Notes: generated from the sequence alone by a model not told the origin. DNA of 64,000 nucleotides from Tortispora ganteri (GCA_003707115.1 PPNB01000002.1:124001-188000), one strand, 5' to 3'. Shown: positions 11,604 to 38,129, counted from the stretch's first letter. Numbers and translations are program-made.

Positions 11604-12014
11604 TTAAACAGCATCGGACTGAGCCAGTATATATTCGACCGCTTTGGGTACAGATTTGATTTCATCGGCCTCCTTGTCGGGGATTTCAATGCTGAATTCC
11701 TCCTCGATGGCCATGACGACTTCGACGACATCAAGAGAGTCGAGACCTAAGTCAGTAGCAAATTCGGCAGTAGGAGTTATCTTAGCAGGGTCGGCGACCT
11801 TGTCGAAGGTCTTAATGACATCAATTATACGGTTTTCGACTTCAGATTTGTCGAGAGACGATGAGTAGAATCTAAGGCCATTGAAGGGAGTCACAAATTG
11901 TGCGCGAAGAAGAGCTGGGCGAGCGATAGAACGGGTAGAAGCGGCAACAGCTTTTGTACTCAGTCCACGACAAGCGATAGCAGAGAGGTTCCTTTTAAGT
12001 ACGGTGCGCAGCAT
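11604..12014 (-). CDS. ACP1: Mitochondrial acyl carrier protein (NDUFAB1)
   Basis: [26 protein letters not shown]. Basic presequence from ATG 12014. Confidence 0.96.
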
Positions 12015-12577: not shown

Positions 12578-13204
12578 ATGCTTAACGCAATGCAAATTAG
12601 AAGGTCCAGTGGTCTTTTGCGTCAGCAGCGGAGACGTATGTTTTCTGTGTCTGTACTAGCAAGGCAAGCTCCACCTGCCGGATTCCGACCAGCTCCTCAA
12701 CCGGAATGGACTTCTGAATCTACTATGGACAAAGCCGGTCACACATTTCTTTTAGCAGAGATGTTCCGAGGAATGTATATTTGTTTAGAACAATACTTCC
12801 GTGCTCCATACACTATATACTATCCATTCGAAAAAGGCCCTATTTCACCACGATTTAGAGGTGAGCACGCGCTACGACGATATCCTACTGGCGAGGAGAG
12901 ATGCATTGCATGCAAACTCTGTGAGGCTATCTGTCCTGCTTTAGCGATTACTATTGATGCGGAAGAGCGAATTGACGGGTCTCGCAGAACTACGAAGTAT
13001 GACATTGATATGACCAAATGCATCTATTGCGGTTACTGCCAAGAATCCTGTCCTGTCGATGCCATAGTTGAATCAACTAATGTTGAGTACGCCACTGAGA
13101 CTCGCGAAGAGTTGCTTTACAACAAAGAGAAACTGTTGGCTAATGGCGATAGATGGGAACAAGAATTACAGAATGCAATCAACGCCGATGCTCCATACCG
13201 CTAA
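12578..13204 (+). CDS. Complex I Fe-S subunit NDUFS8/TYKY (23 kDa)
   Basis: Two 4Fe-4S motifs, [12 protein letters not shown] and [12 protein letters not shown], plus [10 protein letters not shown]. Confidence 0.98.
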
Positions 13205-14455: not shown

Positions 14456-15748
14456 TCACTTGTAATGATCCACAATATCTTCAACGACATCATTTCCTGT
14501 AATGGCTAGCACAGATAAAAGGCTATCACTTAATCCGTGGGTCGATTCATTGCATCCTAAGAGCCAAACCCCAACTCCTGGAGCGATTTTGGCTTCGTTT
14601 CGCGGTGTCAGCTGGTAATTTCTTGTAACCGGCAGAGTTTCTAGGTCATATATAGTTTCGCAACCTTTCAACAGGTTTCTCACAGCAGTAATGCGGTCGT
14701 AGCCTGTAGCACACACTACTACATTATATATGTTCTCAACACTAGAGTTATTTGACTTCAATGAGAGGGTTACGTCTTTTCCAGTGAGACGCGCATCAGA
14801 AACTTCACTTAAGTTCAGCACTCTTCCTCGGTTGGTCTGACCAGGAAGCTTTTGCTGATACAAATGTTCGTATATCTGATCTATTAGATGTGGACGCACG
14901 ACGCTATAATTAGTGGACTTCAAGCTTTTAACCAAATAGTCCCTTGTCTTCTGGGACTGATTGTAGAAAGCGGTTGTAGATTCTGGGTCAAAAATCTCGT
15001 TAACGAAAGGAGAATCGTCGGATGGTCGAAGTGCATATCCTCTAATTATTAAGTCAACCTTGGCATTAGGAAACCTTTCAAGCAAATCCATGAATATCTC
15101 AGCTGCAGACTGGCCTGATCCAACTATAGCCACAGATCCACCCCCGCAAAGACGATCATTTATATGATCAAGGCTGTACATGTATTCACTAGAATGCAAA
15201 ATTGATCTATTAGAAGATCTTATTTTCTGCAGACAGTCTGGGAAACTCGGCTCTCCACCTATGCTAATTGTGATATTTCGAGCGGCTCGGTCGTGCGCCT
15301 TTCCTTCCTTGGAATACGAATGAACTCGAAACCCGGTAAGCGTCCCATTGTCCAGAATTGGCACTATCTCGTTGCACTTTAGTCCGTAATTTACTTTTTG
15401 TTTGACTCTACTTGCACACCATCGCATGTAGTCTTCATACTCTACCCGATAAGGTAAGAAAGTTGACATGTTGATGAATGGCACGAGCTTTTGATTCTCG
15501 AATAGATAGTTCAAAAAAGTGAAAGACGATTTTGGATCTCGAAGTGTAGCAAAGTCTTTCAGAAAAGATATTTGCATCCTTGCAGAAGGAATTAACATTC
15601 CCGAATGCCAGCAAAAAGTATCTTGAGCCTCTATGAACTCGACATACTTCAAGGATTTCGGATTGGTCTCTGTCAAATAAATGGCGAGTGCTAGGCCTGC
15701 AGGCCCGAAACCTACACCTATTAAATCAAGGCAGTCTTCAGTATTCAT
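14456..15748 (-). CDS. L-ornithine N5-monooxygenase (SidA/Sib2 family), first step of hydroxamate siderophore synthesis
   Basis: FAD motif GVGFGPAGL, WHSGMLIP..RMQISFLKD, NADPH motif VGSGQSAAE, PSDDSPFVNEIF, TNYSVV, CATGY, HGLSDSLLS. Confidence 0.96.
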   Translation of the reverse strand: MNTEDCLDLIGVGFGPAGLALAIYLTETNPKSLKYVEFIEAQDTFCWHSGMLIPSARMQISFLKDFATLRDPKSSFTFLNYLFENQKLVPFINMSTFLPYRVEYEDYMRWCASRVKQKVNYGLKCNEIVPILDNGTLTGFRVHSYSKEGKAHDRAARNITISIGGEPSFPDCLQKIRSSNRSILHSSEYMYSLDHINDRLCGGGSVAIVGSGQSAAEIFMDLLERFPNAKVDLIIRGYALRPSDDSPFVNEIFDPESTTAFYNQSQKTRDYLVKSLKSTNYSVVRPHLIDQIYEHLYQQKLPGQTNRGRVLNLSEVSDARLTGKDVTLSLKSNNSSVENIYNVVVCATGYDRITAVRNLLKGCETIYDLETLPVTRNYQLTPRNEAKIAPGVGVWLLGCNESTHGLSDSLLSVLAITGNDVVEDIVDHYK

Positions 15749-15912
15749 AGTCGGGGATCAATTAGTCGTGCGCCACTCTAAAACCTTCCAAAAAACACAG
15801 CTGCTTGTATATTCACTTTATTATGACGTATGGCTAGTCTTCCGAGAGTAATATGGTCTATGCTTAAGGTTCATACTGCTAAAATTGTTAGATCACCCGA
15901 ACGAGTTTTAGA

Positions 15913-16007
15913 CCAATAGAAGACTCCCATTCCATCTGATAGCTCCCCTTTACCTTGTAACATCAAAAGTCTATTATTTCTCGGGGATTTCCTGCTTAAA
16001 TTTATCT
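15913..16007. promoter_or_regulatory. Iron-GATA-like and CCAAT elements in the siderophore bidirectional promoter
   Basis: CCAAT at 15913-15917, ATCTGATAG at 15934-15942 (resembles the SreA/Fep1 ATCWGATA element), and TTATCT (AGATAA on the minus strand) at 16002-16007. Confidence 0.55.
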
Positions 16008-16038
16008 ACAGAGTATTCGCCTTCATAACTCAATTATT

Positions 16039-19000
16039 ATGTCTTCTAACGTAAGTGCCTCTCTATTGCCATTTAATCGACATTTGCTAACATTTTAAGT
16101 GCACCTCATTTCCATCATTGGTCAGTTCATGGGATCGCAGAGCTCCTAGTTATACCGCGTCGTCTCGCGTCCGGTCTATAGCCGCGAATAGATCTGCCGT
16201 GTTGACTACATGGAGCCAATTCCTAAGAAGACACACATATTTCGATGATGTATCATTTATAGAGTATTTTAGTAATGAATACTATTACTGTACATCATGT
16301 CACGACTCAAGTTCTGTCACTGAAACTCCAATTACAAATCTGCCTTCACACGGTTATACTTGCATTTCATGGAACAGAGAATTCGAGCATTCAGGGTCGC
16401 ATCTGACTCTCAATATCTCTTCGAATTCGGTTTTGTTGTCTTCATCCTCGGAAATAGTCACTGAATTGCTGATTAATGATCTCCTTGACCAGTTCCTCTT
16501 CTTATATGGTCAACAAACATCCCCAATGTTGTCTATAGTCAACAGCAATCCTCCGATTCTACCATTTGAACACCTAGTACATCAAAAGATTTTAGCTAAT
16601 AATTCTTCTGACGTTGCATACAAGCACTTATGGTATAATCACTCTCTATTTCAGCTTTCCTTTAGTGAACTAAATGCTATATCAACTTCCTTAGCGGCAC
16701 TCATACCCGAGAATTGTGCTACTCCTATTCCAATTATGATTCCTCAATGTCCCGCTTATTACCTTTCTCTAATTGCAACTTTGCAAGTTGGTCTAGCTTT
16801 TTGCCCCGTTCGGACAGACTCTCCGCAGACCCGCGTTCACTTTATTTGCAACGACGTTAAAGCTACAGTGGCTTTTTGTACCCCTGCATACCGTTCTCTC
16901 TTTCCCTCGCATATCCATATTATAGAACTAGATGAAACCCTCAACGACTTTCAACATTTCCTTACTAAAAAAACTTCTTCTGTGCCTAAATCTGTCTCAC
17001 CAGATTCGTGCGCGTACGTGATGTACACATCAGGCTCTACAGGTGACCCTAAGGGTGTCCAAGTATCTCACGAGAATATAGTGCAAACCTTTATAGGACA
17101 TGATAGCTTTGTTCCTGGCTTTAAAACTATGTTGAATTTTGCTGCTCCTACATTTGACGTCTCTGTATTCGAAATACTATATCCACTGTGGAAAGGCAGA
17201 ACACTTGCTTCGTGCGATCGGTCACTGATGCTTACAGATCTTGAAAACATCATTAATACCTTAGAAATTGATGCAGTAGAGCTCACACCTACTGTTGCTA
17301 GCATGCTTGATGCGAAGAAAGTACCTAACCTGAAGGCCCTACTGACTATCGGAGAGAAGCTCAATGACAAAGTCATCGCAGAATTTGGTGATTCATGCCT
17401 TTACAATTGTTACGGCCCGACCGAAACTACAATTCAGTGTATTGCTACTTTCAACCCGGTCTTAAAGGAATCTAGCGGGTCGGAAATTGGTACTGTCTTA
17501 CCTGCAGTAGGTGCTCTGATTATAGATCCGAACGATTCGTCAATTCTTCCCTTGCCCTTAGGCTGGGTAGGAGAACTAGCAATTATAGGCCCACAGGTGT
17601 CTATGGGCTATTTAAATCGACCACAACTGAATGCTGAGGCATTCATATGCCATCCTACCTACGGAAAGGTGTATCGCACAGGCGATCTATGTCGACTAGG
17701 CGAGCATGAACAAATGTTTTATCAGAGACGCAAGAATGAAGATCAAGTGAAACTGAGAGGTCAACGAATAGAGCTTGGAGAAATTGAAAGTGCTATAAAT
17801 TCATCTATGAAAGGTTTGAAACTCGTCGAGAACTGCAATGGAATATCAGCTGTCTCAGTTATAGATGGGAACCTGTATGCTATTGTTGAGACCCACGATA
17901 CTGCAACAATCACATCTCGGATATCCAAAGTTCTTCCTTCCTATATGATTCCTTCTAAACTAATTACCGGTAAGGTTCCTTTGCTCCCTTCAGGTAAGCT
18001 TGACCGAAAGGGCGTCGTGGCTGCCTTAAAACAAATGACACCTGCACCTAGAGGTGATCATTCGGAGGAGAATCATTCTAGCGAAGATTCAATATGGTCT
18101 TTAGTGTCTACTGAAGCTTATAAACTTGGTGGAGTTTTTCCAACCAGGAGAAATTCGCTGATAGCATGTGGAATTGACTCTATACGGACTATCCGCCTTG
18201 CTCGCCAACTGAAATTACACGGAATACCTATCAGTTCCTTTGCAAAACTTTACAGTTGTAATACTTTTGATGATCTTTATTGTTTATTAAAGAGTTCGGA
18301 ACTTAAAGATACTGATCCTTCACCGAATCATTCAGATAATTGTTCTCCAATTCAAACGGGATTATTACTTCAGACCGTCTCTGATGAGACCTTATATTGG
18401 AATGTTTGTTCTTTTGAAATATCTTTAAAATATATGGTATCCGATATTGTTAAAGCTATTTTGCATATATTTAATGCAAATTCTATATTTCGCACAGGTT
18501 TTAATGTTTCTCTTGATGACTTATGCATACGAAGGATTGTTCATGAGACGTTTCCTGATAAATATATTAATGTTGTTGATATTAAAGATATTGATTCAGT
18601 TGTACAGAGTACTCTGCATTATCTCAGAAGTCAAAATTTTAATTGTGGACCAGCAGCGAGGGTTATACTTTCAAAAGGAGCGAACTCCTATCGCTTGGAA
18701 TTCATAGCACATCATGCTTTATATGACGGTTGGAGTTTGGAGCTTTTAGTTTCAGACTTGACTAGTCTTCTAAGCAACGATGAAGTTTTTATTCGTCCTC
18801 AGTACAATGAATTGCTGTTCTCAGAAATTTATAGTGTTGCTGATGATTCTTATTGGGAAAGTCTTATGAAAGGATACTCGAGCAGCCTTCCTCTTAAGAA
18901 TCTGTTAACCGATCAGCACCTTAACAACAGATTTAGTATTGTTACATATCCGCTTGCTGAAAATTTGGCTGAGACTCTAGCTAAAACAGCGAACGATTTG

Positions 19001-22000
19001 CAAACATCTAGACAAGTCTTATATTATTATGCCTGGTGGCGTGTCATGACTTCACACTATCAGATCAAAGACTTAGCCTTAGCTATTGTGGCCACTGGAC
19101 GAAATATTCCTGTACCAGATATAGACTCCATCTATGGTCCTTTTGCTTCTGTTTTGCCGTTGCGTTATAGCGCGCAAGGCGGCAATGATATCTTTAGCGC
19201 AATTCGCCAGTTTCATATACAATGTCAGGAAATGAAACTGCGACATCGACCTTCGACTCAAGTCGCCTATATAATGCGACACCTGGATATAATATTGGCC
19301 TGGCAAGAGAATATTCTCGGAATAGACTCTGAATTGGTGTCTTTAGTGAGTTCAAATGATCATTTGGAGTATCCATTATTTATAGAGATAATGGTCTCTG
19401 AAAAGCAATTATCGAACAAGATAACATTTAATCAGGAAGTTTTTTCTCGAGAGACGGTAACGAAGTTTATTAAGAACTTTCATACTGCACTTCTAGAGAT
19501 CTGTGAAATGGGTTCTGGCTCTTCGACAACAGGAATGACTAATACTCTGAAGAAGAATGAAGATCGTGCATATCCTGCCATATACTCTCCAGCTCTGACA
19601 TCTACCCCTAGTCAGAATAACTCGAATGGATTTGACATATCTGAAGCTCGTTTTCATACTAGCTTGCAGTACAAGAGGCAGGTTACTATCAGAATTATCT
19701 CTGAAGTTCTCAACTTGAACCAGAATACTCTTGATTATTATGTTCCTTTGAAATATCTGGGCTTCAGCTCTTTTTCTGCTGTCTCTGTGGTTAGAAAACT
19801 ACGGCTGGAAGGAATAGCCAACTTATCTCTTCTTGATGTACTACGAGCTGAGTCATGCCAAAACATTATTGATCTTGTTTTGGGGTCAGGTGTACCTACA
19901 TCATTTAAACTGCCATCTATTCCACTGAAGGAGGATTTATTTTGCAATGAATCCAGTTCCTTGACATATGACATGGTTTTTAAGACCTTTTCCGATGAAA
20001 ATTGCATTGAAGCAATCTATCCCTTGACTTCAATACAAAAGGCAATGCTCGCCAGGTACCTAATAGATAACCGAATCTACATCAATAAAGCATCTTTGGA
20101 ATTTGATGAACCTGTTCAGCTCTCTCGATATATGAATGCATTGGATTTGGTTTCTTCTATTTTCACTGTATTAAGAAGCAAATTTACCGTCTACAATGAT
20201 ATGGTTCACCCCTTTCTTCAAATCGTCTATAAACAAAGGAGTCTGAAATTACTCGATTCAGATGTATTTTCCTTATCTGAGTGGGATTTCATGGAACATC
20301 CTTTAGTATTTGTCTCGAAATGCAGTTTAGCTCCAGATACGAATTTTAATGAGCTTGTGTGCTACTTTCACCACTCCTTGTTGGATGCAGGATCTTTTCA
20401 TAAGATAATAGATACTATCAATTTGGCTCTTTCTAACAAAGAACTACCTGTTATTGATGACGAATACGTTCCTGCTTTGAATCTGGTACTTAACCTAGAC
20501 AGCGTGAACCACTTAGAGCCTTATGCTTTAATTGCTGACAAACTCTCGCCTACTTTAATTGAAGAGTGCAAATATGCTCAAATTTCCAACTCTAACAAAG
20601 ATCCAATTGATTATATTGAGTTTTTCATTGATAAATCAATTGTTGACACAGTTCTTAAACGTCTTTCTACGTCTTTGACTGACGTTGCAATTCTCTTATG
20701 GACATGTGTTCTTCAACAAGTTCTTGATAAAGAGCATGTCACATTTGGCCTAGCTCATTCTTTAGATTATCTATCCGAAGAAATATCTTCACCTGTTGGT
20801 TGTTTTTTGAACATGTTATCTCTTTCAACCGAGATTGAAATGGGACAATCTATACCTGATTTTTGTGACTCAGTGAATAAGCAGATATCGGAATTGTTAG
20901 CTGCTTTTCCAGTCTCCAAGAACACATTGCAGCAGTATTTAGCTGTCTCGAACCTTTATGATACTGCAATAATCGTTCAACCTCTTCAGGCTTCTATGCA
21001 TCCCGCAAATGTGAATTCTATTGAGGGAATAACTGATTTCAAGGCTTTATTTGAAATAGAACCCTTAGAGGATAATGTAAAGTTTACTCTGCAATTAGAT
21101 ACATCTATCGGGTTGAGTTTCTTGTTTGAGATTGTCAAGCAGTTCACCATTAATTTCTTTGATCTATGGTTTACCAAAGTTAATGTCTATGACTTGTTAA
21201 CTGTTCTTGAATCTCTTATAGAACATAACGTCCCTGATACTAGTATTCCCGAGTCAACTGGACCATCCATAGAAGCTAATAGCTTTCTTATATCTGATAA
21301 TCAAGTATACAGAGACATTTTCCATGCAACTAAAGGTATTTCAAAGTTACCTGATGAGTATTTCACTCCCGAAATCACTTTCAAAGAGCTTGGAATTGAT
21401 TCAATTCTGATGGTATCACTTTATTCACGCCTAAAGGTTTCTTATTCTCATATTTTGCCTAATACTGTTTTGTCTGCAAAGACTATATCTGAGTTATGTT
21501 GGCTAATTTCTCAGAACAGCGATCTACCGGTACATAATCGTCATGTTTCTGACAATTTGGCAAGTGTTGTTGTGGAAGAAACAGAAACCTCTTTGTCTTA
21601 TGCTACTCATTCTGTATCGCAAGGTTTGCTTTATGACTTTCTGAAGTCAGAAGGTAGGTATGGTTATGCGCTCTTTAACTGTTCATTGAAGCTTCCTCTT
21701 GGATCTACTATTTCAGCGAAGGATAAATTACTAGACTCATTGGTCGAATTATGTAAGTTGCATCCAATCTTGCGGACAGGGTTCCTTGTTGGTGAAAGGT
21801 TCAAGGAGCCGTTATTTAGTGTGGCTAAAGCAATTTCAAGAACTGAAATCTCCTCTTTAATACACTGGGTTTCTCTTACGGATGAAAATAACGATTATGA
21901 ATTGCTATCTGTGTATAATTCCATTATTGAGGATCTTTCTGGTCCTCAGTGGCGAATTTTAGCTGATATGACATGTCTAAATCCTTTGAAATTTATATGG

Positions 22001-25000
22001 TATGTCAATCATGCTATAATGGATGCTCATTCTTTTAGCGTGATTTTACAAGACTTTAGTCTACTTGATCAAGGACTGATTGAGAAAAAGTACGATATTG
22101 GACACGGAGCTATATACTTTTCTGAGAATTTTGACCGGCAAGTTGATTCTGCAGATGCTTACGAATGGTGGAAAGAGTATTTGAATCCTAATAGCTTTAC
22201 TGTTTTTCCAACTCTTACCCCCACTTTCAAGCAGAATGGATTTAATCAGGTTTCAGGGAATTTGGATATTCATGTGTCTATGCTCTCAAGTGTTTCTTCT
22301 GGTATACCGGCTAGTGCTATTCTAGCCACATCATGGGCATTGACTCTCGGTCATTTACTTGGAACAGACCTGGTCTGTTTTGGATTCTTGCAGAATTTTC
22401 GAAGTTCTGCAGTGGTATTAGACAACTGTGAGTTACCTTGCTTCAAGGTTCTTCCTTTTGTTTTGTCGCTAGAAGGACAAAATAAGGAAATTCTCCAGCG
22501 AGCGAGTGACAATCTCTCTTCACTAGCTGATCATGGCAGGGACTCCCTTTCACACGTGTTAAAGCATATTGGATTGGGTTCTGAGGTTCTTTTTGACACA
22601 CTTCTAACTATACAAATAGACGAGCTACTCGGTCAAGATAATGCTACAGTCCAAAGCAGTTTCCGATGTCACTCCTCCGGTAGTCGTGACAAATTTCCTA
22701 TCTCTATTGAGCTCTATCTGCGTTCGAGTGGCTCTATGAAATGCAATATATTTTTTAATATGGAGAAACTTTCGGAGGATAACGCCAATGTTATCATGAG
22801 CATATTCGAGAATATCGTGAAGCATATTGTCGCTAAGCCAAACGAGTTAGGACTTACTGTTTTTCCTGAACTTTCTCTTTCGATAGTTCCACCACAAATA
22901 AAAATGTATGATACATCTTGTACGTATCTCCCTGGATTGCTTCTTGACAGTTTTACAACTAAAAGGAAAGAAGTGGCACTTGAGATGGTGTACGACTTTT
23001 CTGAGAAGAGCGTGGCTATGGAGTATTGGACTTATAGTCAGTTGTACCTTGAGTCATTAAAAGTTGCAAACTTTCTGGTCTCCCTTGGACTCCCTAGAAA
23101 TAGTCCTATTGCTCTTTGCTTTGAAAAATGTCCTTATGCGTCATTTGCTATGGTTGGTGTTTTGTTGGCAGGACATGCTATTGTTCAACTGGATGCTAAA
23201 GCCCCAGATGAGAGGAAAAAGTACATAATTAGCGACGTTGGTTGTAACTTATTGCTAACATGTACTAACCTTTACGAAAATTTGAGCAATTTAGACGTCT
23301 CCGTGGTAAACATTGAAGCAGATCAAAATGTACTTCGAAGCTCCACTACAATTCCTACTGTTAATGCAAGACTTAACGATATCTGCTACATTCTTTATAC
23401 GTCTGGATCTACAGGGAACCCTAAAGGATGTATTATATCTAACGAAAATGCTATTCAAGGGCTGCTGGCATTTGAGGATCAGTTTAAATCTCGCACTAAT
23501 TCCGAATCGCGACTTCTAGCATTTGCTTCTTACCATTTTGACGTCAGTATTCTTGAACACTTTTGGTCTTGGATGACGGGTATTGTACTAGTTACCTGTT
23601 CGCATGATTTAATTTTAAGAGATTTGTCAGAGACCTTAAAGACTTTAAGAATTAGTCATGTTGATCTGACACCTTCATTGGCGTCTACATTAAGCCCTGT
23701 AGGGCTCAGAAACCTACAAAATGGAATATTCATTACTGGAGGTGAGATGTTAAAACGTGAAATTCTTGAAAATTGGGGCTCTTTTGGCTGCATATACAAC
23801 GCATATGGACCTACTGAGGCTACAATTGGTGTAACTGTCAGAAAACATGTGTCATGCGGAGCTAATCCAAATAATGTGGGTCATCCATTTGCTAATGTTG
23901 GCCTTCTGATACTCAAGCCTGGTACAACTGATATAGTCCCTCGGATGGCTGTTGGTGAAGTGTGTCTATTTGGCCCTCTTGTTGGTCAAGGTTACGTTAA
24001 TCGCCTTTCGGAAACAAAAAAATCCTTTGTGCAACTAGATCTGGCAGACTCTACAGTGTATCGTACTGGTGATATTGGAAGGATACTTGCTGATAACTCT
24101 TTGTGCATAATTGGTCGTATAGACTCTCAAATCAAATTAAGAGGCCAACGATTGGAGGCATCAGAAGTGGAAAGTGTTATCAAATCCTCACGGAATGATA
24201 TAACAGATGTATGCGTACAAACTGTGCGCAAAGGTTTGTCTGACCAGTTAGTGGCGTATATTGTTCTTGGCACTGCTAGTTCTAGCGATCCAGAGATATT
24301 AAGCATGAATCAAGAACTTACATTTATTGCTGATTATGTTAAAGATGTTTGCTCGAAAGCTCTGCCACCCTACATGATTCCGTCCTATGTTGTATTTTTG
24401 ACACGTTTGCCCATTACACGAAACAACAAGACCGACAAAAAGCTTCTCAATGAGATGTTTCTTTCATTAAACAGCTCTTTTTTTAATAAATCAGAGAGCA
24501 TGTCTAGTGCTCACGATTCATTTACGTTGACCGATACTGAGGCTAAAATTCTTGAATGTTCAAGTTCTCTGCTTGATATTTCTACTGAATCGATTAGTTC
24601 ACGTACAGTATCTTTGTTCGAACTCGGTTTAGACTCTATACTGGCAATCTCTCTAGCTAACAGATTAAAACCACATTTCAAAAATGCGTCTGTTCCTGTT
24701 ATAATGTCCAATCCGAGACTTTGTGATCTATCTGCAGCATTAACCTCAGACATTGGTTTCAACGAATTGGAGAATATTGACATTGAAGTTACAGATTCTG
24801 ATATAGAACTAAACAATGATTTTACGGTGGACTATATAATGCGGTGCTCAGCTGTACAGGAAAACATTCTGGCACACTACTTTATATCAGACTCATCTGG
24901 TTACAATACACTATTTGAGTATTCTTTGCATGAATCTATTGACCTTGAGAAGCTAAATCGAGTCTTTTCTATTCTAGCTAAACGGTGTGAGATCCTAAGA

Positions 25001-28000
25001 TCAGGGTTTACTGTAACTTCAACTGGTCCCGTTCGAGTGGTGTACAAGGATTACAGTCCTTCAGTGTGGTTGGTAAATTCTTCTCAAGGCGAGGTTAATC
25101 AGTTTCAAGGTTTCTCAAATCTTGAGCTCCCTCCTTATAGAATTGAAGTTGTTCAATATTTGGAATCAGAAAAGATTTTAAGAATTTACTTATTTCATGC
25201 ACTATTTGATGCAGGCACTGTGCAACTTCTAGAGCAACGCATATGTGGTTTGTACCATGATCTCAATTACGATTTCCAAGACACTTATCAAACTGCATTG
25301 AAATCTGCTTTGAGCTATAATACTCATGCGTCAAAGAAATTTTGGTCATCTTGTTTAGCTGAAACCCCGTTACTAAATTTCAAGAACTTTGCCGCTGCAG
25401 GTGATAATTCGGAGTTTCTGACTAGTACAGTGGATATCAATATCAATTCACTGCGTAAAAAAGCCAGAGATTTCTCGACTACATCTAACATTATGCTCCA
25501 TGCAATTTGGACGTTATATTTAGGAATTCTGTGCAATGGTAGTATGGTATCGTATGGAACCATATTTTCCGGAAGACATGGTGAGAGAGTATTTGACGCT
25601 GAAGAAGCTTGTGGACCTTTGTTTAATATTTTACCAATGTCTATAGGTTCTTTAGATGGTGCATCTTTGGCTTCTTTATGTTCAAAGATTCACAATTATA
25701 TGAGTTCATGCTATCCATTTTATGCTACCAAACCTGCAGATATAAAGAGATGGATTGGAATTGATATGAATATCAGACTTTTTGATATTTTATTCACTGT
25801 TATTCCAGATTATAAGGTGCCCGATGATTTTAGTATCTGGAACTCACGCCGATCAGTTTCGTTTTCGTCAACGTTCCCTCTTGCAATAGAGATTTGTATA
25901 GGAGAGGTCTTAGAGGTTACAATCTCTATAAACAGCTCTCTATGCGACAAAAAAATTGGTATTATTATATTGGAGGATTTCACTGCTCTTTTAAAGCAAA
26001 TAATTCTATGTGAATCTATTAAACCGCTCGATGTGTCACTGCCTAATAGTAAAGGTTTACTCTCTCCTTTACTAACTATCCATAATAACACACACCAAAC
26101 AAATACTGAAAACTACCTGGAAAAGAATGAAGCACAATTGTCTATGACTTTATCTCCTTCATTGATCAAGATTATCAAAGCTATTGCTGATTGTCCTGAA
26201 ACTATTGGGCCTGCTACAACACTAATCAGCCTTGGCTTTGATTCTTTGTCCCTAGTCACTCTCTGCGCCCGAATCAGACGTACTCTCAGTATAAATATTC
26301 CTTTGAAAGAAGCTTTGTCATTCAAAGTGCTTGCCCATTTTCAGCAGTACTTGAACACACACTATGATTCCGGTTCAGTGCCTGGTGAAACCTTGGCGAA
26401 GAGGATTTCCTCGCTCGACAAGATACCATGCACGCCTATGCAGGCCTTTATGGTGTCAGAGATGCAAAAATCTCTCAATCACAATTATGTTACGCATGTC
26501 ACTTTTTCTATAAAGAGAAATATCGATATAGGGCTCCTGGAAAACTCATGGAGGACGGTTATTAATACTAATTCCATTTTGCGAACCTCTGTATCTGAAT
26601 TTGGTTATGATGATTTAGATATTTACAGTTCAGGTTACTACCTTAAAGTCGGTGCTCAGTTTGGTGAGAATAGTCCTATATTTAGGCGAATTTACTGTTC
26701 TGCAGATAACATTGAGTGGTTCAGGTCGAGCCTTATCGAATCTGAAAGCATAGTATTCCATGATGACGCACCTTTGTTAACTTTATGGCTTCTTGATACT
26801 GGGGATAGCTACCATCTTCATTTAAGAATGTCTCATGTAATATATGATGCTATTTCATGGAACTTAATGTTCTCTGACGTTGAAAAGTGCTACTATAATA
26901 CATGTGAAACCTACAAGTCACCTGATTTTTCGCCCCTTCTTGCACGAATACTAATTGAAAATGCATCTACTGATATTAATGAAGGATTAGACCTATTTGC
27001 AAACGCTCATGTTATCTCATTTCCGAAACTTGCCGAAATAGATCGAATTCCTCTTGCTGGTCATTATAAGGTCAGCATGGTTTCCAATGTCTCTTCAACG
27101 TCTCTGAAGAACTTTGCACGAGTATCTGATGTTTCGATTCAAGTTATTGCTTATTGCTGCTGGTCAGTGGTGCTGAAATCAATCTGTTGTGATTATAAAG
27201 ATCAGTTTTCGCCGATCTTTATGACAGTATTAGCCAATCGAACCACTGAAGAGGAAATGAATATGATGTTTCCGGCTATGAAATCATCAGTTCTTTATGG
27301 AGAAACTGGTGGTACAGTCAAAAGTATGCTCTGCTTTATGCAAAATCTAGTAGATGTCACAAGGCAGGGCAATATCGATATCCGGGAGATTATGAAGAAA
27401 TATACCACTGATAATTCGGCTGAAGTTGATACTCTGTTTTTATACCAGGCTCCTATATCTGTGAAACAAGCTGAAAGTAGTCTTTGGACAGAATCATTTA
27501 GCAATTCTGAAGTGCAGTACGCTGTTGCTGCTGAAATGCAGATAGTTGGTAATCAGATCATGTGGAGAGCAGCTGCGAATGCACTGTATTTAACTGAAAC
27601 TGACTTGAATATTCTGGTCAGGCAGCTTGATGCTGTTTTGCATAATATTATATCAATAGACAATGACCTTGGTGTTGACTCTCTAACTGACTATGATACT
27701 TCACTGCTATCTATTTTCAATCCAATAAAAAGTGATCAAGATCAAAATTTTATTATAGATTTTGACGCTATGAATGAGCACAGAAATGAGACAGCTTGTT
27801 TGGAAGTATCAAATGCGATTGGCTGTGAAGATCTACATTCATTTGGTGATATTCTGCAAGATGTGGATTTAATCAGCAAAAACATAAACATTGCTATGTC
27901 TAATAAACACGTGAACCAAATTATAATTATTTGCTCAAGTGTTTATCGCCAATGTATTCTTTCTCTTGCTTTATTACAGAGCAATATCGAGAATATATTC

Positions 28001-30700
28001 ATTGCTGACGAGAAATGTGACTTTTCTGTCATTGAAAGTTTAGACGACTCTTGTCTGTTTGTGACAGACTCATTAGAAGTTTGTGAATTACTGAATGAAC
28101 GTGTTCTGAATTATACTAGTTTATTGCATGAGAATGAATATGCAATCCCTGCCCCGCAGTTGCGCAACTTGAATCAAAAATTCTATATTGCACCCCTAGG
28201 CCATGATTTTTCTCAGATTAATCCTGTATTAAGCAGTGATTTGATAGCTACAATCAAAGAGTTACGCTCATCTCTCAGCGAGATTAATGTTAAAGTGGGA
28301 TTGCCTTTTGAATTAAGAATACTTATGACTTTGGCCATGTGGAGTATAGGCATGAAGGTGATTCACACTTCTTGGAAATTTGATGCACGAATATTGAATG
28401 AACTAATCGTGGAATACGATGTTAAGGCTTTATCTTGTTCATCTGAAGTATCAGCGTGTCTGAAATTTGCCAATATACAACAATTGAACTTTCTTATCTG
28501 CGACAATAAAGTGCCATATTCATGGCAATTGTATCGATTACCCGCAAATGAGCGCCATTCTTTTTGGCTTTGTCATAGTTTGAATCAGTGGCCGACGCTA
28601 TTTGGTAATATCGCATTGGAACAATGCAACTGGGTTTATTTGAATTCTGTTTTGCCGAAACCATATAGCATAAGGTCGTCTGATGGGCCTAGTGAAATGA
28701 TTATGCCGATGTTTACTGAAGGAAAGTTTTATTACAACTCTCTTCCTTTAGATTGGAATCTTAGAATGACTAGTAAGAGTTTAGTAGCTCGACCTGAAGA
28801 ATCTGCGGAAAGTTCGATTCAGGCTATGCTTCTTAGTTCATTGTCAGACCTTGACTCGATGTGTTGTTTGATCAATGAGCAGTGTGATGAATTGTTTATA
28901 TATTTTACTTTGAAAAACCATAAGGATGACTTGGATGAAGTAATTCATGCTATGAATGAAGTACTTATAAGAATTTCTGAATTGGTTTTGAAACGTGTTC
29001 CGAAGAAAGTGACTTATTCTTTCGTTGATTTTATAAGGCCGTTAACTGGAGGCTATGAGTTTGATTATATAAGCAATAATTTTGGAAGCCGAGAAGTATT
29101 TCTTGATGATTTGGTTTGCTCTTTTGATAAATCTGAACGGAAATACTGGGATTCAAAGCTAAAGTCATTAATAGCTGCCGTGATTCCTGAATTTCGCTTG
29201 ACAGACATGACCGATAACATTAGTGTATTTGATCTAGGACTTGATTCTATACGAATTCTCAGAATTGCGTCCAAATTGACTGACGATGAATGCCCAATAT
29301 CCGCCAGCGAATTGATAGGTTGCAGATATGTTACCAAAATGGTATCTCTAGCACATTCCAGATACTTACAGAAACCTGGATTGTCTCACACAATCATTCC
29401 TGCTGCTGAAAGTGCATTTGCACAACTTGCTACCAGTTGTAATATAAGTGAGTTTTGCTCGCACGTCCTGCCACTATATGCTGGGCAAGTATACACTCTT
29501 TCTTGCTGGGAATGGAGCAATCACGAAGTTTTCCTCTACAAATTTGAGTATTTCATAAAGAATATAACTCCATCGGCGCTAGAACGAGCATGGTATGAGC
29601 TTGTTAATTGTCGAGCTATTCTGCGCACACTGATCTGCAATAGCTTATCTGTGCGAAATCCAGTTGTGCAAGGAGTGCTAAAGCAAGGTCAATATGTAAA
29701 AGGGAAACCGAATTTGAAGAATCCATTCTGTGAGTTTGAAATCATTAGAAGTGACAACAATGGAACCACATTTAGCATTATTCTTCATCATGCGCTATAC
29801 GATGCATGGTCACTTCATAGCTTACTGACTGACCTTGAGAAGTTATGCAATAACGAGTCTGTCAAAGACGATATTGATACAACTCTTGTGCTTGCTTCTC
29901 AACGCATGTTTCGAGATAGTAAATCAAGGCTATTCTGGAAAAACTATTTGAGTGGGACGTGTGCAATTAGCTTTGAATGTTCCAAAGGTTCCCCTATGAC
30001 TAGAGTAGGTCTTTTCAAAGAGCTTGGAATACCCAGGTTGCGTCAGATCGAAAAACTGGTACAGGAAAAACGCGTTTCGGTCCAGGCCTATATCATGGTA
30101 TGTATAGGAAGAGTTCTGTTGCATTATTCTTCATCATTTGAGCCGCAACTATCAGCTGATAATATTATCATTGGACTGTATTACTCTGGACGGTTTGGAC
30201 AAACGGTCAATAATGTGGATGCATCAGGCATCCCCACTATGAACGTTCTACCGTTGGTCGTGCAAACGAAAAACAATGTGTTTAATGCTAGTTCCTCAAT
30301 TGATGACTTCTTAGCAGAAATATCTGGGAAGGAGTTTTTCGATATACAAGAGTTAAAAGAATGTGCAAACATTACTGGGCCTATGATCTGTGTGACTGTC
30401 AATTTCCTTCCGGAGACGCTAGGAAGCCCACACTCATCTGTCAAACATTTACGTACTGAAGTGCACAAACTGAATTATATTAACGGGAATGATTCTGCTA
30501 TTGGTGAAGTCGCGCACTTAGAAGACTTAACGGCTAACGATGCAGTAAGGATGGATCTCGATATTGAAATTAAGATAGATCGCGATCAAGATGGGCTCGC
30601 TGTTGGCCTTTTCAGCTGGGAAGAAGTTTGCAACAAACAGGAATTGGAAATATTAACGGAGAAGATTAACGAAGAGGTCTTTAAGGAACTACATACTTAA
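16039..30700 (+). CDS. Ferrichrome-type siderophore NRPS (SidC/Sib1/NPS2 family), ~4870 aa; exons 16039-16050 and 16100-30700
   Basis: Two A domains (YTSGSTGDPKG, YTSGSTGNPKG; YGPTE; YRTGD), six T motifs (GIDS, GFSS, GIDS, GLDS, GFDS, GLDS) and six C motifs (xHxxxD). Ends in a C domain with no TE. Lies divergent to the ornithine monooxygenase. Confidence 0.93.
16051..16099 (+). other. Spliceosomal intron (49 nt, phase 0) in the NRPS 5' end
   Basis: GTAAGT donor at 16051, GCTAAC branch at 16086-16091, AAG acceptor at 16097-16099. Splicing joins ATG TCT TCT AAC in frame to the long ORF. Confidence 0.85.
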
Positions 30701-30830: not shown

Positions 30831-31856
30831 ATGAGCGCTTTTTTAACCAGCTTTTCGCAACTAGCTGAAACAAATATTTGGCTCACAGTGTGTGCGTCAG
30901 TTGGAATTATTGTCTTAACGCGCGTTCTGTTGACGTTTGTGTCGTTCTTCCAAGACTTTCTCACACCTGGCACCAGCCTAGTAAAGTATGGCGCTGGTAA
31001 AGGTTACTGGGCCGTAATCACTGGATGCACGAGTGGTATAGGTGAAGAATTTGCACTTCAATTGGCTAAAGCGAAATTTAATGTACTTTTGATCTCGCGT
31101 TCTGAATCAAAACTGCAAAGCATGGCGGCCCTTATCGACTCTGAGGTCTCGGTAGAGACTGGGTATCTTCCAATTGACTTTAACAACGCGTCCGAAGACG
31201 ATTGGGAAACGCTCAAACAAAGAATTACCGAACTAGATGTTGCGGTCTTGATAAATAACGTCGGAGTATCACACAGCATTCCAGTACCGTTCTTAGAGAC
31301 TTCAATTGAGGAGATGGAAAGCATAATTAATGTTAACAATACTAACACATTAAGAATCACCCAAATTGTCGCGGAAAGAATGCTCTCTTTGAAGACCAAA
31401 GGCGTTCGTGGACTCATTTTGACAATGGGATCATTTGCCGGCTTGTATCCTACACCGTTACTTGCAACTTATTCCGGTTCTAAAGCATTTTTGCAGAACT
31501 GGTCATCTGCCCTCGCTTATGAGCTCCAACCGTACAATATCGATGTCCAGTTGGAAGTCTCATACCTTGTTACTTCTGCTATGTCGAAAATTCGACGTCC
31601 TTCTCTCAGTATTCCTAACCCTAACACCTTCGTTCGTGCTACGTTGAGCAGTCTTGGACGGCGTCGTGGCGCCGTCGGTAGATGGTGCTCTTCTACTCCC
31701 TATTGGGCGCATGCGGTCATGGAATTAGCTATTGAACAGCTATTTAGCGCGTACAGCTGGGTTGTAATTAGCATTAATGGACGTCTACATGAAGATATTC
31801 GAAAGCGTGCCCTTAAAAAGCGTGCACAAAAGCAGGCTGCCTCTAAATCGGAATGA
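30831..31856 (+). CDS. IFA38: Very-long-chain 3-oxoacyl-CoA reductase (SDR)
   Basis: WAVITGCTSGIGEEFA, LINNVG.SHSIP, PTPLLATYSGSK, H.DIRKRALKK. Confidence 0.93.
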   Translation: MSAFLTSFSQLAETNIWLTVCASVGIIVLTRVLLTFVSFFQDFLTPGTSLVKYGAGKGYWAVITGCTSGIGEEFALQLAKAKFNVLLISRSESKLQSMAALIDSEVSVETGYLPIDFNNASEDDWETLKQRITELDVAVLINNVGVSHSIPVPFLETSIEEMESIINVNNTNTLRITQIVAERMLSLKTKGVRGLILTMGSFAGLYPTPLLATYSGSKAFLQNWSSALAYELQPYNIDVQLEVSYLVTSAMSKIRRPSLSIPNPNTFVRATLSSLGRRRGAVGRWCSSTPYWAHAVMELAIEQLFSAYSWVVISINGRLHEDIRKRALKKRAQKQAASKSE

Positions 31857-37352: not shown

Positions 37353-38129
37353 TTAGTCGGAATCACCTGAGTCGTCTATGCGGTAAACAAGATCGACCCA
37401 GGTTTGACCAGCATGGTCACAGTTTGAGGTGCCGCAGTCTGTGAATCCATTTTTTATGTAAAATGGAGCGACTTCTGGGTGCGCTATTAATATTACTTTG
37501 TCAGCAACAGAGTGCATACCCATTCGCTTGGTGTACTCGTTGAGCAAAGAAGATCCTATATGGGCACTCTGATAGTCGGGATGGACAGCAAGAGAATGGA
37601 TTGCAATGGATGTACCGCCATTTATATGCCCTCTGTAGTCGCCCTTAACGGGTCTTCCGTCAACAAGGTCGGGGATCTCCATTGATTCATTGGTAATGGT
37701 GTCTTTGTCAGACTGCGTAGCGATTAAATGAGCAATAAGTTTTTCCTCTCTGTCGATCTCGGAAGGATAAGCGGCTGCGTAAATGTCAGATGAGTTTATC
37801 TTTAAAGATATAGAATTTCCTGAATCACGGTTATTATTTTCAGTTTCACTTGAGTCGGTGTAGGCACCGAACTGATCGTCTGATGTGTCGTGGTTTTCTT
37901 CAGAGTCTGCGTTCCTAGAATCGGTGTAAAATTTAGCATCTTGAGGCTGCAGAGACTGATTACGCAAGAAGACTCCTAGAGATAATTCGCTACATACGCT
38001 CAGACGGTACTGAATTTTAGCTTTTGAAGCTCTTTCGGCGGGATTCGTGAAAGCGAGAGTCTCTAGCTCAGCTGCCTTATCTGCGTCCGATCTCAATAAA
38101 GGGCGTACAACGGCGTGTTCGGGTAGCAT
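37353..38129 (-). CDS. PAA1: Polyamine/arylalkylamine N-acetyltransferase (GNAT, Paa1-like)
   Basis: VRPL, ERAS..KIQYRLSVCSELSLG, GH..GGTSIAIHSLAVHPDYQ, LIAH..V.PFY.KNGF. Confidence 0.85.
   Translation of the reverse strand: MLPEHAVVRPLLRSDADKAAELETLAFTNPAERASKAKIQYRLSVCSELSLGVFLRNQSLQPQDAKFYTDSRNADSEENHDTSDDQFGAYTDSSETENNNRDSGNSISLKINSSDIYAAAYPSEIDREEKLIAHLIATQSDKDTITNESMEIPDLVDGRPVKGDYRGHINGGTSIAIHSLAVHPDYQSAHIGSSLLNEYTKRMGMHSVADKVILIAHPEVAPFYIKNGFTDCGTSNCDHAGQTWVDLVYRIDDSGDSD

Follow-up and report, generated by a model that had tools for sequence, protein, structure and literature searches.

How could a synthetase with six carrier domains and only two intact adenylation domains assemble a complete cyclic hexapeptide? 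The question is raised by a single 14.6-kb gene for a nonribosomal peptide synthetase (NRPS) that runs from an ATG at 16039 to a stop codon at 30700 on the plus strand of a 64,000-nucleotide stretch of DNA from Tortispora ganteri (GCA_003707115.1, PPNB01000002.1:124001-188000; hereafter, the window). An initial annotation of the window had counted six carrier (T) domains and two intact adenylation (A) domains, and had predicted that each A domain serves three carriers. The count is borne out, in that motifs A3, A5 and A7 each occur twice in the 4860 residues translated from the long open reading frame (ORF), Pfam returns two AMP-binding matches, and there is no third functional A domain. The reading that we prefer, and to which we assign a probability of roughly 0.78, is that the enzyme is a ferrichrome synthetase of the NPS2 lineage with two working A domains, each loading three carriers, that its product is ferrichrome, and that a 491-residue block before the last T domain (here termed X) is a dead A domain of the sixth module.

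Motif positions were taken from a regular-expression scan of the translated ORF, and Pfam was run on the whole protein and on 15 overlapping segments. The domain order that emerges is A1-T1-C1-T2-C2-T3-C3-A2-T4-C4-T5-C5-X-T6-C6 (C, condensation domain), with C6 reaching the last residue (Table 1); this is the order initially annotated, and the positions then given for the six C-domain and six T-domain motifs are exact. The His motifs of the C domains lie at 18710 (HHALYDG), 20369 (HHSLLDA), 22007 (NHAIMDA), 25193 (FHALFDA), 26831 (SHVIYDA) and 29786 (HHALYDA), and the Ser motifs of the carriers at 18170, 19757, 21389, 24623, 26231 and 29234. The P-loops of the two A domains are likewise present, at 17024 (YTSGSTGDPKG) and 23396 (YTSGSTGNPKG), in each case 9 nt away from where they had been placed (~17015 and ~23387). 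Run on the whole protein, Pfam identified two AMP-binding and six Condensation matches and four PP-binding stretches; run on the segments, it matched every domain in the above order, with no family at E<=10 in the C5-T6 segment. The end of C2 (residue 1703-1710) and the start of T3 (residue 1728-1742) are so close that there is no space for an A domain between them. The sole close relative of the NRPS is its orthologue in Tortispora caseinolytica (CANCADRAFT_1757, 4853 aa), which is 75-90% identical in every domain and marks the window as DNA from a near relation of that budding yeast; every one of the six C domains retains the Asp and second His of its HHxxxDG motif, in both species, and the Ser cores of all six T domains, including T1 and T2, are conserved in the orthologue. 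A further sequence resembling a carrier Ser motif, LGVDSL at the C5/X junction (27668-27685), was considered as a seventh carrier and rejected; it has no carrier-domain match, its Asp is Lys in T. caseinolytica, and it is probably a chance resemblance.

Which substrates the two A domains accept can be approached from their binding pockets. A MAFFT alignment comprising 81 A domains was used to extract the 10- and 17-residue pocket sets, a mapping that is validated in that it reproduced all four of the 17-residue sets published for C. heterostrophus NPS2 (ChNPS2; Bushley et al. 2008, Table 2, PMC2644324). The codes obtained, DVFELICIQK for A1 (17-residue set FADVFEYETLIYCTIQK) and DVLDIGAIGK for A2 (17-residue set FADVLEWDTIGYATIGK), are identical to those previously aligned by eye, and the likeness to ferrichrome synthetase codes then pointed out holds on comparison with the published sets. 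The A2 pocket is the same at 17 of 17 positions as that of AMP3 of F. graminearum NPS2 (FgNPS2), for which N5-acyl-N5-hydroxyornithine (AHO) is predicted, and is equal to those of A4 from Lipomyces starkeyi and Limtongia. The A1 pocket has 13 of 17 residues in common with AMP1 of ChNPS2/FgNPS2 and 12 of 17 with AMP1 of Sib1, the corresponding 10-residue codes being DVFELIMIHK and DVFEIIAIHK, respectively; these published sets are assigned to glycine, as is the first-module A clade of NPS2 and Sib1 as a whole (Bushley 2008, PMC2644324). A1 is thus of glycine type and A2 of AHO type as regards their pockets, and glycine and AHO are the probable substrates.

The placement of the individual domains is consistent with this assignment. 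In a FastTree phylogeny of A domains, A1 belongs to the NPS2 module-1 clade (14 leaves, support 0.993), where it groups with the A1 domains of Lipomycetaceae (0.964), and A2 belongs to the terminal-A clade (15 leaves, support 1.0), where it groups with the A4 domains of Lipomycetaceae (0.903). The tree of C domains places C1, C5 and C6 in their own positional clades, and each of C1, C3, C4, C5 and C6 reaches roughly double the score with NPS2 C domains of the same number that it has with those at any other position. Since the C domains of the window scarcely match one another, and C1 and C3-C6 match their positional NPS2 counterparts, a recent internal duplication of T-C units was rejected; rather, the best-hit scores and clades together point to a derived NPS2-lineage synthetase that has lost the A domains of modules 2 and 3. 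Other features of ferrichrome NRPSs of this lineage are also present, i.e. more T-C units than A domains, a terminal C domain instead of a thioesterase, an AHO-type pocket, A and C domains belonging to position-specific clades (C2 being ambiguous), and a linked L-ornithine N5-monooxygenase gene.

What, then, is X? It has the position and the length of an A domain and is very probably a dead, badly decayed A domain of module 6, a reading that draws on that position and length, on the A domains or remnants that homologues carry at the same site, on a collinear profile match, on its ESM neighbours and on its conservation. The degenerate A domain initially annotated after C5 is real as a block, but is far more decayed than that wording suggested, no Pfam family matching it at E<=10. 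A hidden Markov model (HMM) of 76 A-domain sequences scores the whole of X at 10.1 bits, with none of 3000 shuffles as high, and its T. caseinolytica counterpart at 2.4 bits, which 12 of 3000 shuffles reach; when hmmsearch was limited to residues 206-290 of X the X of the window scored 14.8 bits and that of T. caseinolytica 6.9 bits, neither being reached by any of 2000 shuffles. Comparison of X with the A profile by hhalign gave E=7.2e-4 at a probability of 26%. The only part recognisable as A domain is the A4-to-A5 stretch (Table 1), with possible motif relics discernible by eye in X as YTS, NQWPT, LKNHKDDLDEV and PLTGGYEFD. A feature search of the ESM-Atlas with X returned AMP-binding clusters exclusively, at 0.92-0.94, and an AlphaFold2 model made from a two-sequence alignment has a mean predicted local distance difference test score (pLDDT) of 30.4. 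Between the two Tortispora species the identity of X is 75%, near the 77-82% of the C domains, and X is therefore apparently constrained.

The homologues provide a graded context for this block. The gap between C5 and T6 was surveyed in 91 homologues ending in T-C-(x)-T-C and is 22-50 aa in 67 of them (39-50 aa in Pezizomycotina, other than Ascodesmis with 132 aa), 109 aa in Neolecta, 212-232 aa in 10 Lipomycetaceae (P0018, P0019, P0028, P0030, P0037, P0041, P0055, P0060, P0064 and P0065), 488-491 aa in both Tortispora proteins, and 542-593 aa in 10 homologues that have an intact A domain before the last T. The Lipomycetaceae sequence matches the C-terminal half of the A profile (hhalign probability 99.1%, E=6e-19) and appears to be a truncated, dead module-6 A domain in otherwise Type V enzymes. 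After C5, Saitoella complicata (P0008, residues 4232-4676) has an A domain in which motifs A3 and A5 are intact and the pocket is AHO-like, followed by low-complexity sequence, and Lipomyces japonicus (P0009, residues 4893-5262) has a degraded A domain; both of these gene models stop inside the A domain and appear truncated or mis-spliced. Complete (A-T-C)x6 relatives occur in Spizellomyces sp. (P0003, 7021 aa) and Basidiobolus meristosporus (P0004, 6834 aa). The pockets of the latter are, in order, Gly-type, Ser-type, second Gly-type and three AHO-like (DVFDVGAIGK, DVCAVGAIGK and DVFAVGAIGK), so that to judge from its pockets it is a ferricrocin-like synthetase of hexamodular, collinear design, as has been postulated for the ancestor.

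It is known that terminal C domains cyclise in fungal NRPSs. In the mechanism that we propose, A1 would charge T1, T2 and T3 with glycine, and A2 would charge T4 and also T5 and T6, one and two modules downstream, with AHO, the hydroxyornithine being supplied by the product of the divergently transcribed ornithine N5-monooxygenase gene. C1-C5 would build the linear hexapeptide, which C6 would cyclise and release, giving ferrichrome, cyclo(Gly3-AHO3), as the predicted product. X would be what is left, in inactive form, of the A domain that module 6 had in a hexamodular ancestor, and would be retained as a folded spacer.

Several results weigh against this reading. T1 (15.5 bits) and T2 (15.9 bits) are under the Pfam cut-off of 20.8 bits, and the T2 motif is GFSS, not GxDS. 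In the C-domain tree C2, C3 and C4 come together on long branches outside their expected clades, a grouping that we read as probable long-branch attraction; the best-hit scores leave C2 alone ambiguous, such that it is unplaceable. In A1, the residue at position 331 is Gln, as in Lipomycetaceae, where Sib1, ChNPS2 and the chytrids have His. Moreover, the AMP1 clade was assigned to glycine by elimination, on the ground that ferrichrome is the product of Sib1, Ser having first been considered by the authors (Bushley 2008, PMC2644324). The points concerning A1 lend themselves to a different view of the product, namely that A1 of an enzyme of the same class takes Ser or Ala or is promiscuous, giving another ring of the ferrichrome family, or that repeated amide formation on a single carrier, in place of the loading of three, gives the Gly stretch. 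SidC provides precedents, as described by Jenner 2023: the substrates that it is given determine whether it makes ferricrocin or ferrichrome, and one of its A domains is capable of poly-amide formation. The agreement of A1 with the AMP1 set at 13 of 17 pocket residues, the clear dissimilarity of the family's Ser-type (DVFSVAGNIK) and second Gly-type (DMYDYIS.CK) pockets to A1, and the presence downstream of A1 of three carriers with a conserved Ser make this view unlikely.

The remaining points concern X. The core motifs A3 (P-loop), A5, A7, A8 and the A10 Lys have no regular-expression match in X, matches being confined to A1 and A2. BLASTP of X against A2 and A1 showed no similarity (best E 15 and 3.3, respectively), a search of PDB sequences returned none at E<=10, and comparison with 12 module-6 remnants by phmmer gave a best E of 0.29; likewise, hhalign showed no similarity between X and the remnant of Lipomycetaceae (E=0.27). 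The N-terminal third of X is at shuffle level, its score being reached by 916 of 2000 shuffles, as is the C-terminal third (133 of 2000), and clade-specific A HMMs give only 3.9, -0.2, 5.1 and 1.3 bits; since these are weaker than the general A HMM, X is unassignable to the AHO clade by sequence. The T. caseinolytica orthologue was the only relative of X found both in a word-indexed search of a library of 5.8 billion proteins (one match among 2860 candidates) and in a full HMMER scan of 1.84 billion representatives. Such isolation, with two thirds of the block at shuffle level and no match in Pfam, PDB or by BLAST, is what would be expected if X were an insertion of unrelated origin, or a novel domain, and had its own function. 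This is quite improbable, however, in view of the A-domain position and length of X, the significant collinear match to the A profile in both species, the uniformly AMP-binding ESM neighbours, and the graded A remnants that Saitoella, L. japonicus and Lipomycetaceae carry at this site. That the gene as a whole is a decaying, non-functional leftover in a lineage losing siderophore synthesis, as might be suggested by the absence of such synthesis from most budding yeasts (Kominek et al.), the deletion of two A domains and death of another, and the high divergence of C2, is most improbable given a 14.6-kb frame without interruption, 75-90% identity to T. caseinolytica across all domains, the conservation of the catalytic motifs of A1, A2, T1-T6 and C1-C6, and the intact neighbouring monooxygenase gene.

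Compared with described synthetases, the organization of the Tortispora enzyme is familiar in its logic and unusual in its detail. Six ferrichrome synthetase architectures have been published (Bushley 2008, PMC2644324; Jenner 2023, Fig. 5 legend); as set out in those sources, all six are without an A domain in module 6, and A-T-C-T-C-T-C-A-T-C-T-C-dA-T-C (dA, dead A domain) is not among them. The closest in design is Sib1 of S. pombe (Type III), with the order A-T-C-T-C-dA-T-C-A-T-C-T-C-T-C, for which it has been proposed that two A domains each serve three carriers (Schwecke 2006, via Bushley 2008, PMC2644324). Like the Tortispora enzyme, Sib1, the product of which is ferrichrome, has six T and six C domains, two functional A domains and a dead one, no thioesterase, a Gly-type first A domain and an AHO-type A domain in module 4, is paired with an ornithine monooxygenase, and has the same proposed one-to-three loading. 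The comparison with Sib1 suggested in the initial annotation, here made from the published description, thus stands for the two-A logic but not for the architecture. In Sib1, the dead A domain is in module 3 and there is no block between C5 and T6, whereas in the Tortispora enzyme T3 directly follows C2 and the dead A domain is in module 6, as a 491-aa block before T6; in addition, the A1 pocket differs from that of Sib1 AMP1 at 5 of 17 positions. Hence, of the features that define the Sib1 type, the two intact A domains are present, but a dead A domain between C2 and T3 and a plain T-C-T-C tail are not. The principle of two A domains for six carriers was therefore already known, since Sib1, with three A domains of which one is dead, six T and six C domains, makes ferrichrome; it is the domain order and the module-6 relic that are new.

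By descent, the closest enzymes are the NPS2 synthetases of C. heterostrophus and Lipomycetaceae (Type V; four A-T-C modules, then T-C-T-C), which are of the same lineage, with A1, A2 (equivalent to A4), C1 and C3-C6 of the Tortispora enzyme as positional orthologues. The Lipomycetaceae enzymes are the nearest sisters, having in common Gln-331 in A1 and an A remnant between C5 and T6. By contrast, the Tortispora enzyme has neither the Ser-type A2 nor the second Gly-type A3 of Type V, and the module-6 relics differ, that of Lipomycetaceae consisting of 212-232 recognisable residues and that of Tortispora being full-length, at 491 aa, and unrecognisable. SidC of A. nidulans (Type II) is likewise a non-linear NRPS of the ferrichrome family, in which there is experimental evidence that an AHO-specific A domain loads downstream carriers; in the work reported by Jenner 2023, loading of T4 by A3 was shown by intact-protein mass spectrometry and n+2 loading was proposed and tested. 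SidC differs in belonging to the NPS1/SidC lineage, in the numbers of its intact A domains (three) and T-C units (five), and in its AHO pocket, which is DPLSTGAIGK-like. Homologues of SidA, SidC, SidD and SidF, as well as of SidL, have been noted in T. caseinolytica (Kominek et al., preprint), the available text of which does not describe the architecture of the synthetase, and a search of the literature found no further description of ferrichrome synthetases in Saccharomycotina, or of ferrichrome NRPSs in Lipomyces.

The start of the gene, annotated at 16039, is correct only if a 49-nt intron is allowed for. The long ORF (16118-30700, plus strand) is an uninterrupted 4860 codons, and only the splicing out of 16051-16099 brings the ATG at 16039 into its reading frame. 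The spliced N-terminus, MSSN|CTSFPSLVSS, is the start of the T. caseinolytica orthologue (MSSNCTSFPSLVSS). The annotated orthologue (P0002) is without 16 residues of A2 (about 2380-2395 of the window protein), reflecting either a mis-called 48-nt intron or a real deletion.

Table 1. Coordinates of the synthetase gene, its domains and the adjoining features in the window.
Feature	Position	Strand	Basis
Exon 1 (ATG TCT TCT AAC)	16039..16050	+	Sequence read; T. caseinolytica orthologue starts MSSNCTSF...
Intron, 49 nt	16051..16099	+	GTAAGT ... GCTAAC ... AAG; exon 2 in frame with long ORF
Exon 2, through stop codon	16100..30700	+	With exon 1 encodes ferrichrome-type NRPS, about 4870 aa
A1, intact adenylation domain, code DVFELICIQK, Gly-type clade	16577..18067	+	Pfam AMP-binding 178.5 bits; motifs A3, A5, A7, A10
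T1 (GIDSI)	18074..18298	+	Local HMM; Pfam 15.5 bits, under cut-off; core kept in T. caseinolytica
C1 (HHALYDG)	18317..19519	+	Pfam 91 bits; best matches NPS2 C1 domains
T2 (GFSSF; S for D before Ser)	19667..19888	+	Pfam 15.9 bits; local HMM; core kept in T. caseinolytica
C2 (HHSLLDA), most diverged C domain	19955..21247	+	Pfam 43.3 bits; positional orthology ambiguous
T3 (GIDSI), directly after C2, no A between	21299..21517	+	Pfam segments; local HMM
C3 (NHAIMDA)	21596..22846	+	Pfam; best matches NPS2 C3
A2, intact adenylation domain, code DVLDIGAIGK, AHO-type	22970..24487	+	Pfam 198.6 bits plus AMP-binding_C
T4 (GLDSI)	24530..24751	+	Pfam segments; local HMM
C4 (FHALFDA)	24824..26020	+	Pfam; best matches NPS2 C4
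T5 (GFDSL)	26144..26362	+	Pfam segments; local HMM
C5 (SHVIYDA)	26408..27667	+	Pfam; best matches NPS2 C5
X, 491-aa C5-T6 block, read as decayed module-6 adenylation domain (dA6)	27668..29140	+	Residues 3851-4341
A4-to-A5 stretch, sole recognisable A-domain part of X	28307..28501	+	X 214-278 collinear with A-profile 187-251 (65 residues)
T6 (GLDSI)	29141..29362	+	Pfam segments; local HMM
C6 (HHALYDA), terminal condensation domain, presumed cyclising	29432..30697	+	Pfam; groups with NPS2 C6 domains
L-ornithine N5-monooxygenase gene (SidA/Sib2-like), divergent	14456..15748	-	Pfam Lys_Orn_oxgnase PF13434, 359.5 bits, E=2.3e-107
Shared divergent promoter region, 290 bp	15749..16038	.	Between monooxygenase and NRPS genes

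The divergent promoter contains one WGATAA site (16002-16007), which, with about 0.5 expected by chance, is uninformative. The acyl donor enzyme for hydroxyornithine, an N5-transacylase, was not found in the window. At 6.6 kb downstream from the NRPS there is a gene for a GNAT acetyltransferase (37353-38129, minus strand; 258 aa, Acetyltransf_10/7/1), a weak candidate only for an N5-acetyltransferase. A short-chain dehydrogenase gene (30831-31856, plus strand; adh_short, 120 bits) begins 130 nt past the NRPS stop codon and is probably housekeeping. Beyond the monooxygenase gene there is a gene for a 2x[4Fe-4S] ferredoxin-type protein resembling the TYKY subunit of complex I (12578-13204, plus strand; Pfam Fer4 families), adjoined by an ORF (11604-12014, minus strand) that by eye is mitochondrial acyl carrier protein-like; genes for complex I would speak against fission yeast as the source of the DNA.

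No new mechanism is opened by these results, the two-A principle having been published for Sib1 and loading between modules having been shown in SidC. The Tortispora enzyme may nevertheless be a clean test bed for n+1 and n+2 loading, since there are exactly three carriers per A domain and no other A domain interferes. More tentatively, and with doubt prevailing, it may be that Tortispora and fission yeast reached the two-A logic independently, via different deletions from a hexamodular synthetase, and that X is a selectively maintained pseudo-adenylation scaffold holding T6 for charging by A2 or cyclisation by C6; if so, X would, alongside the intact (A-T-C)x6 synthetases found in Basidiobolus and Spizellomyces and the graded series of remnants seen in Saitoella and Lipomycetaceae, constitute direct evidence for a hexamodular ancestor. 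The enzyme presents a seventh domain order for ferrichrome synthetases, in budding yeast, a group long thought to be without siderophore synthesis, and would represent a different, independent route to the same minimal two-A logic. The module-6 A relic, the Lipomycetaceae and Saitoella remnants and the intact hexamodular enzymes of early-diverging fungi make the hexamodular-ancestor hypothesis of 2006/2008 directly checkable.

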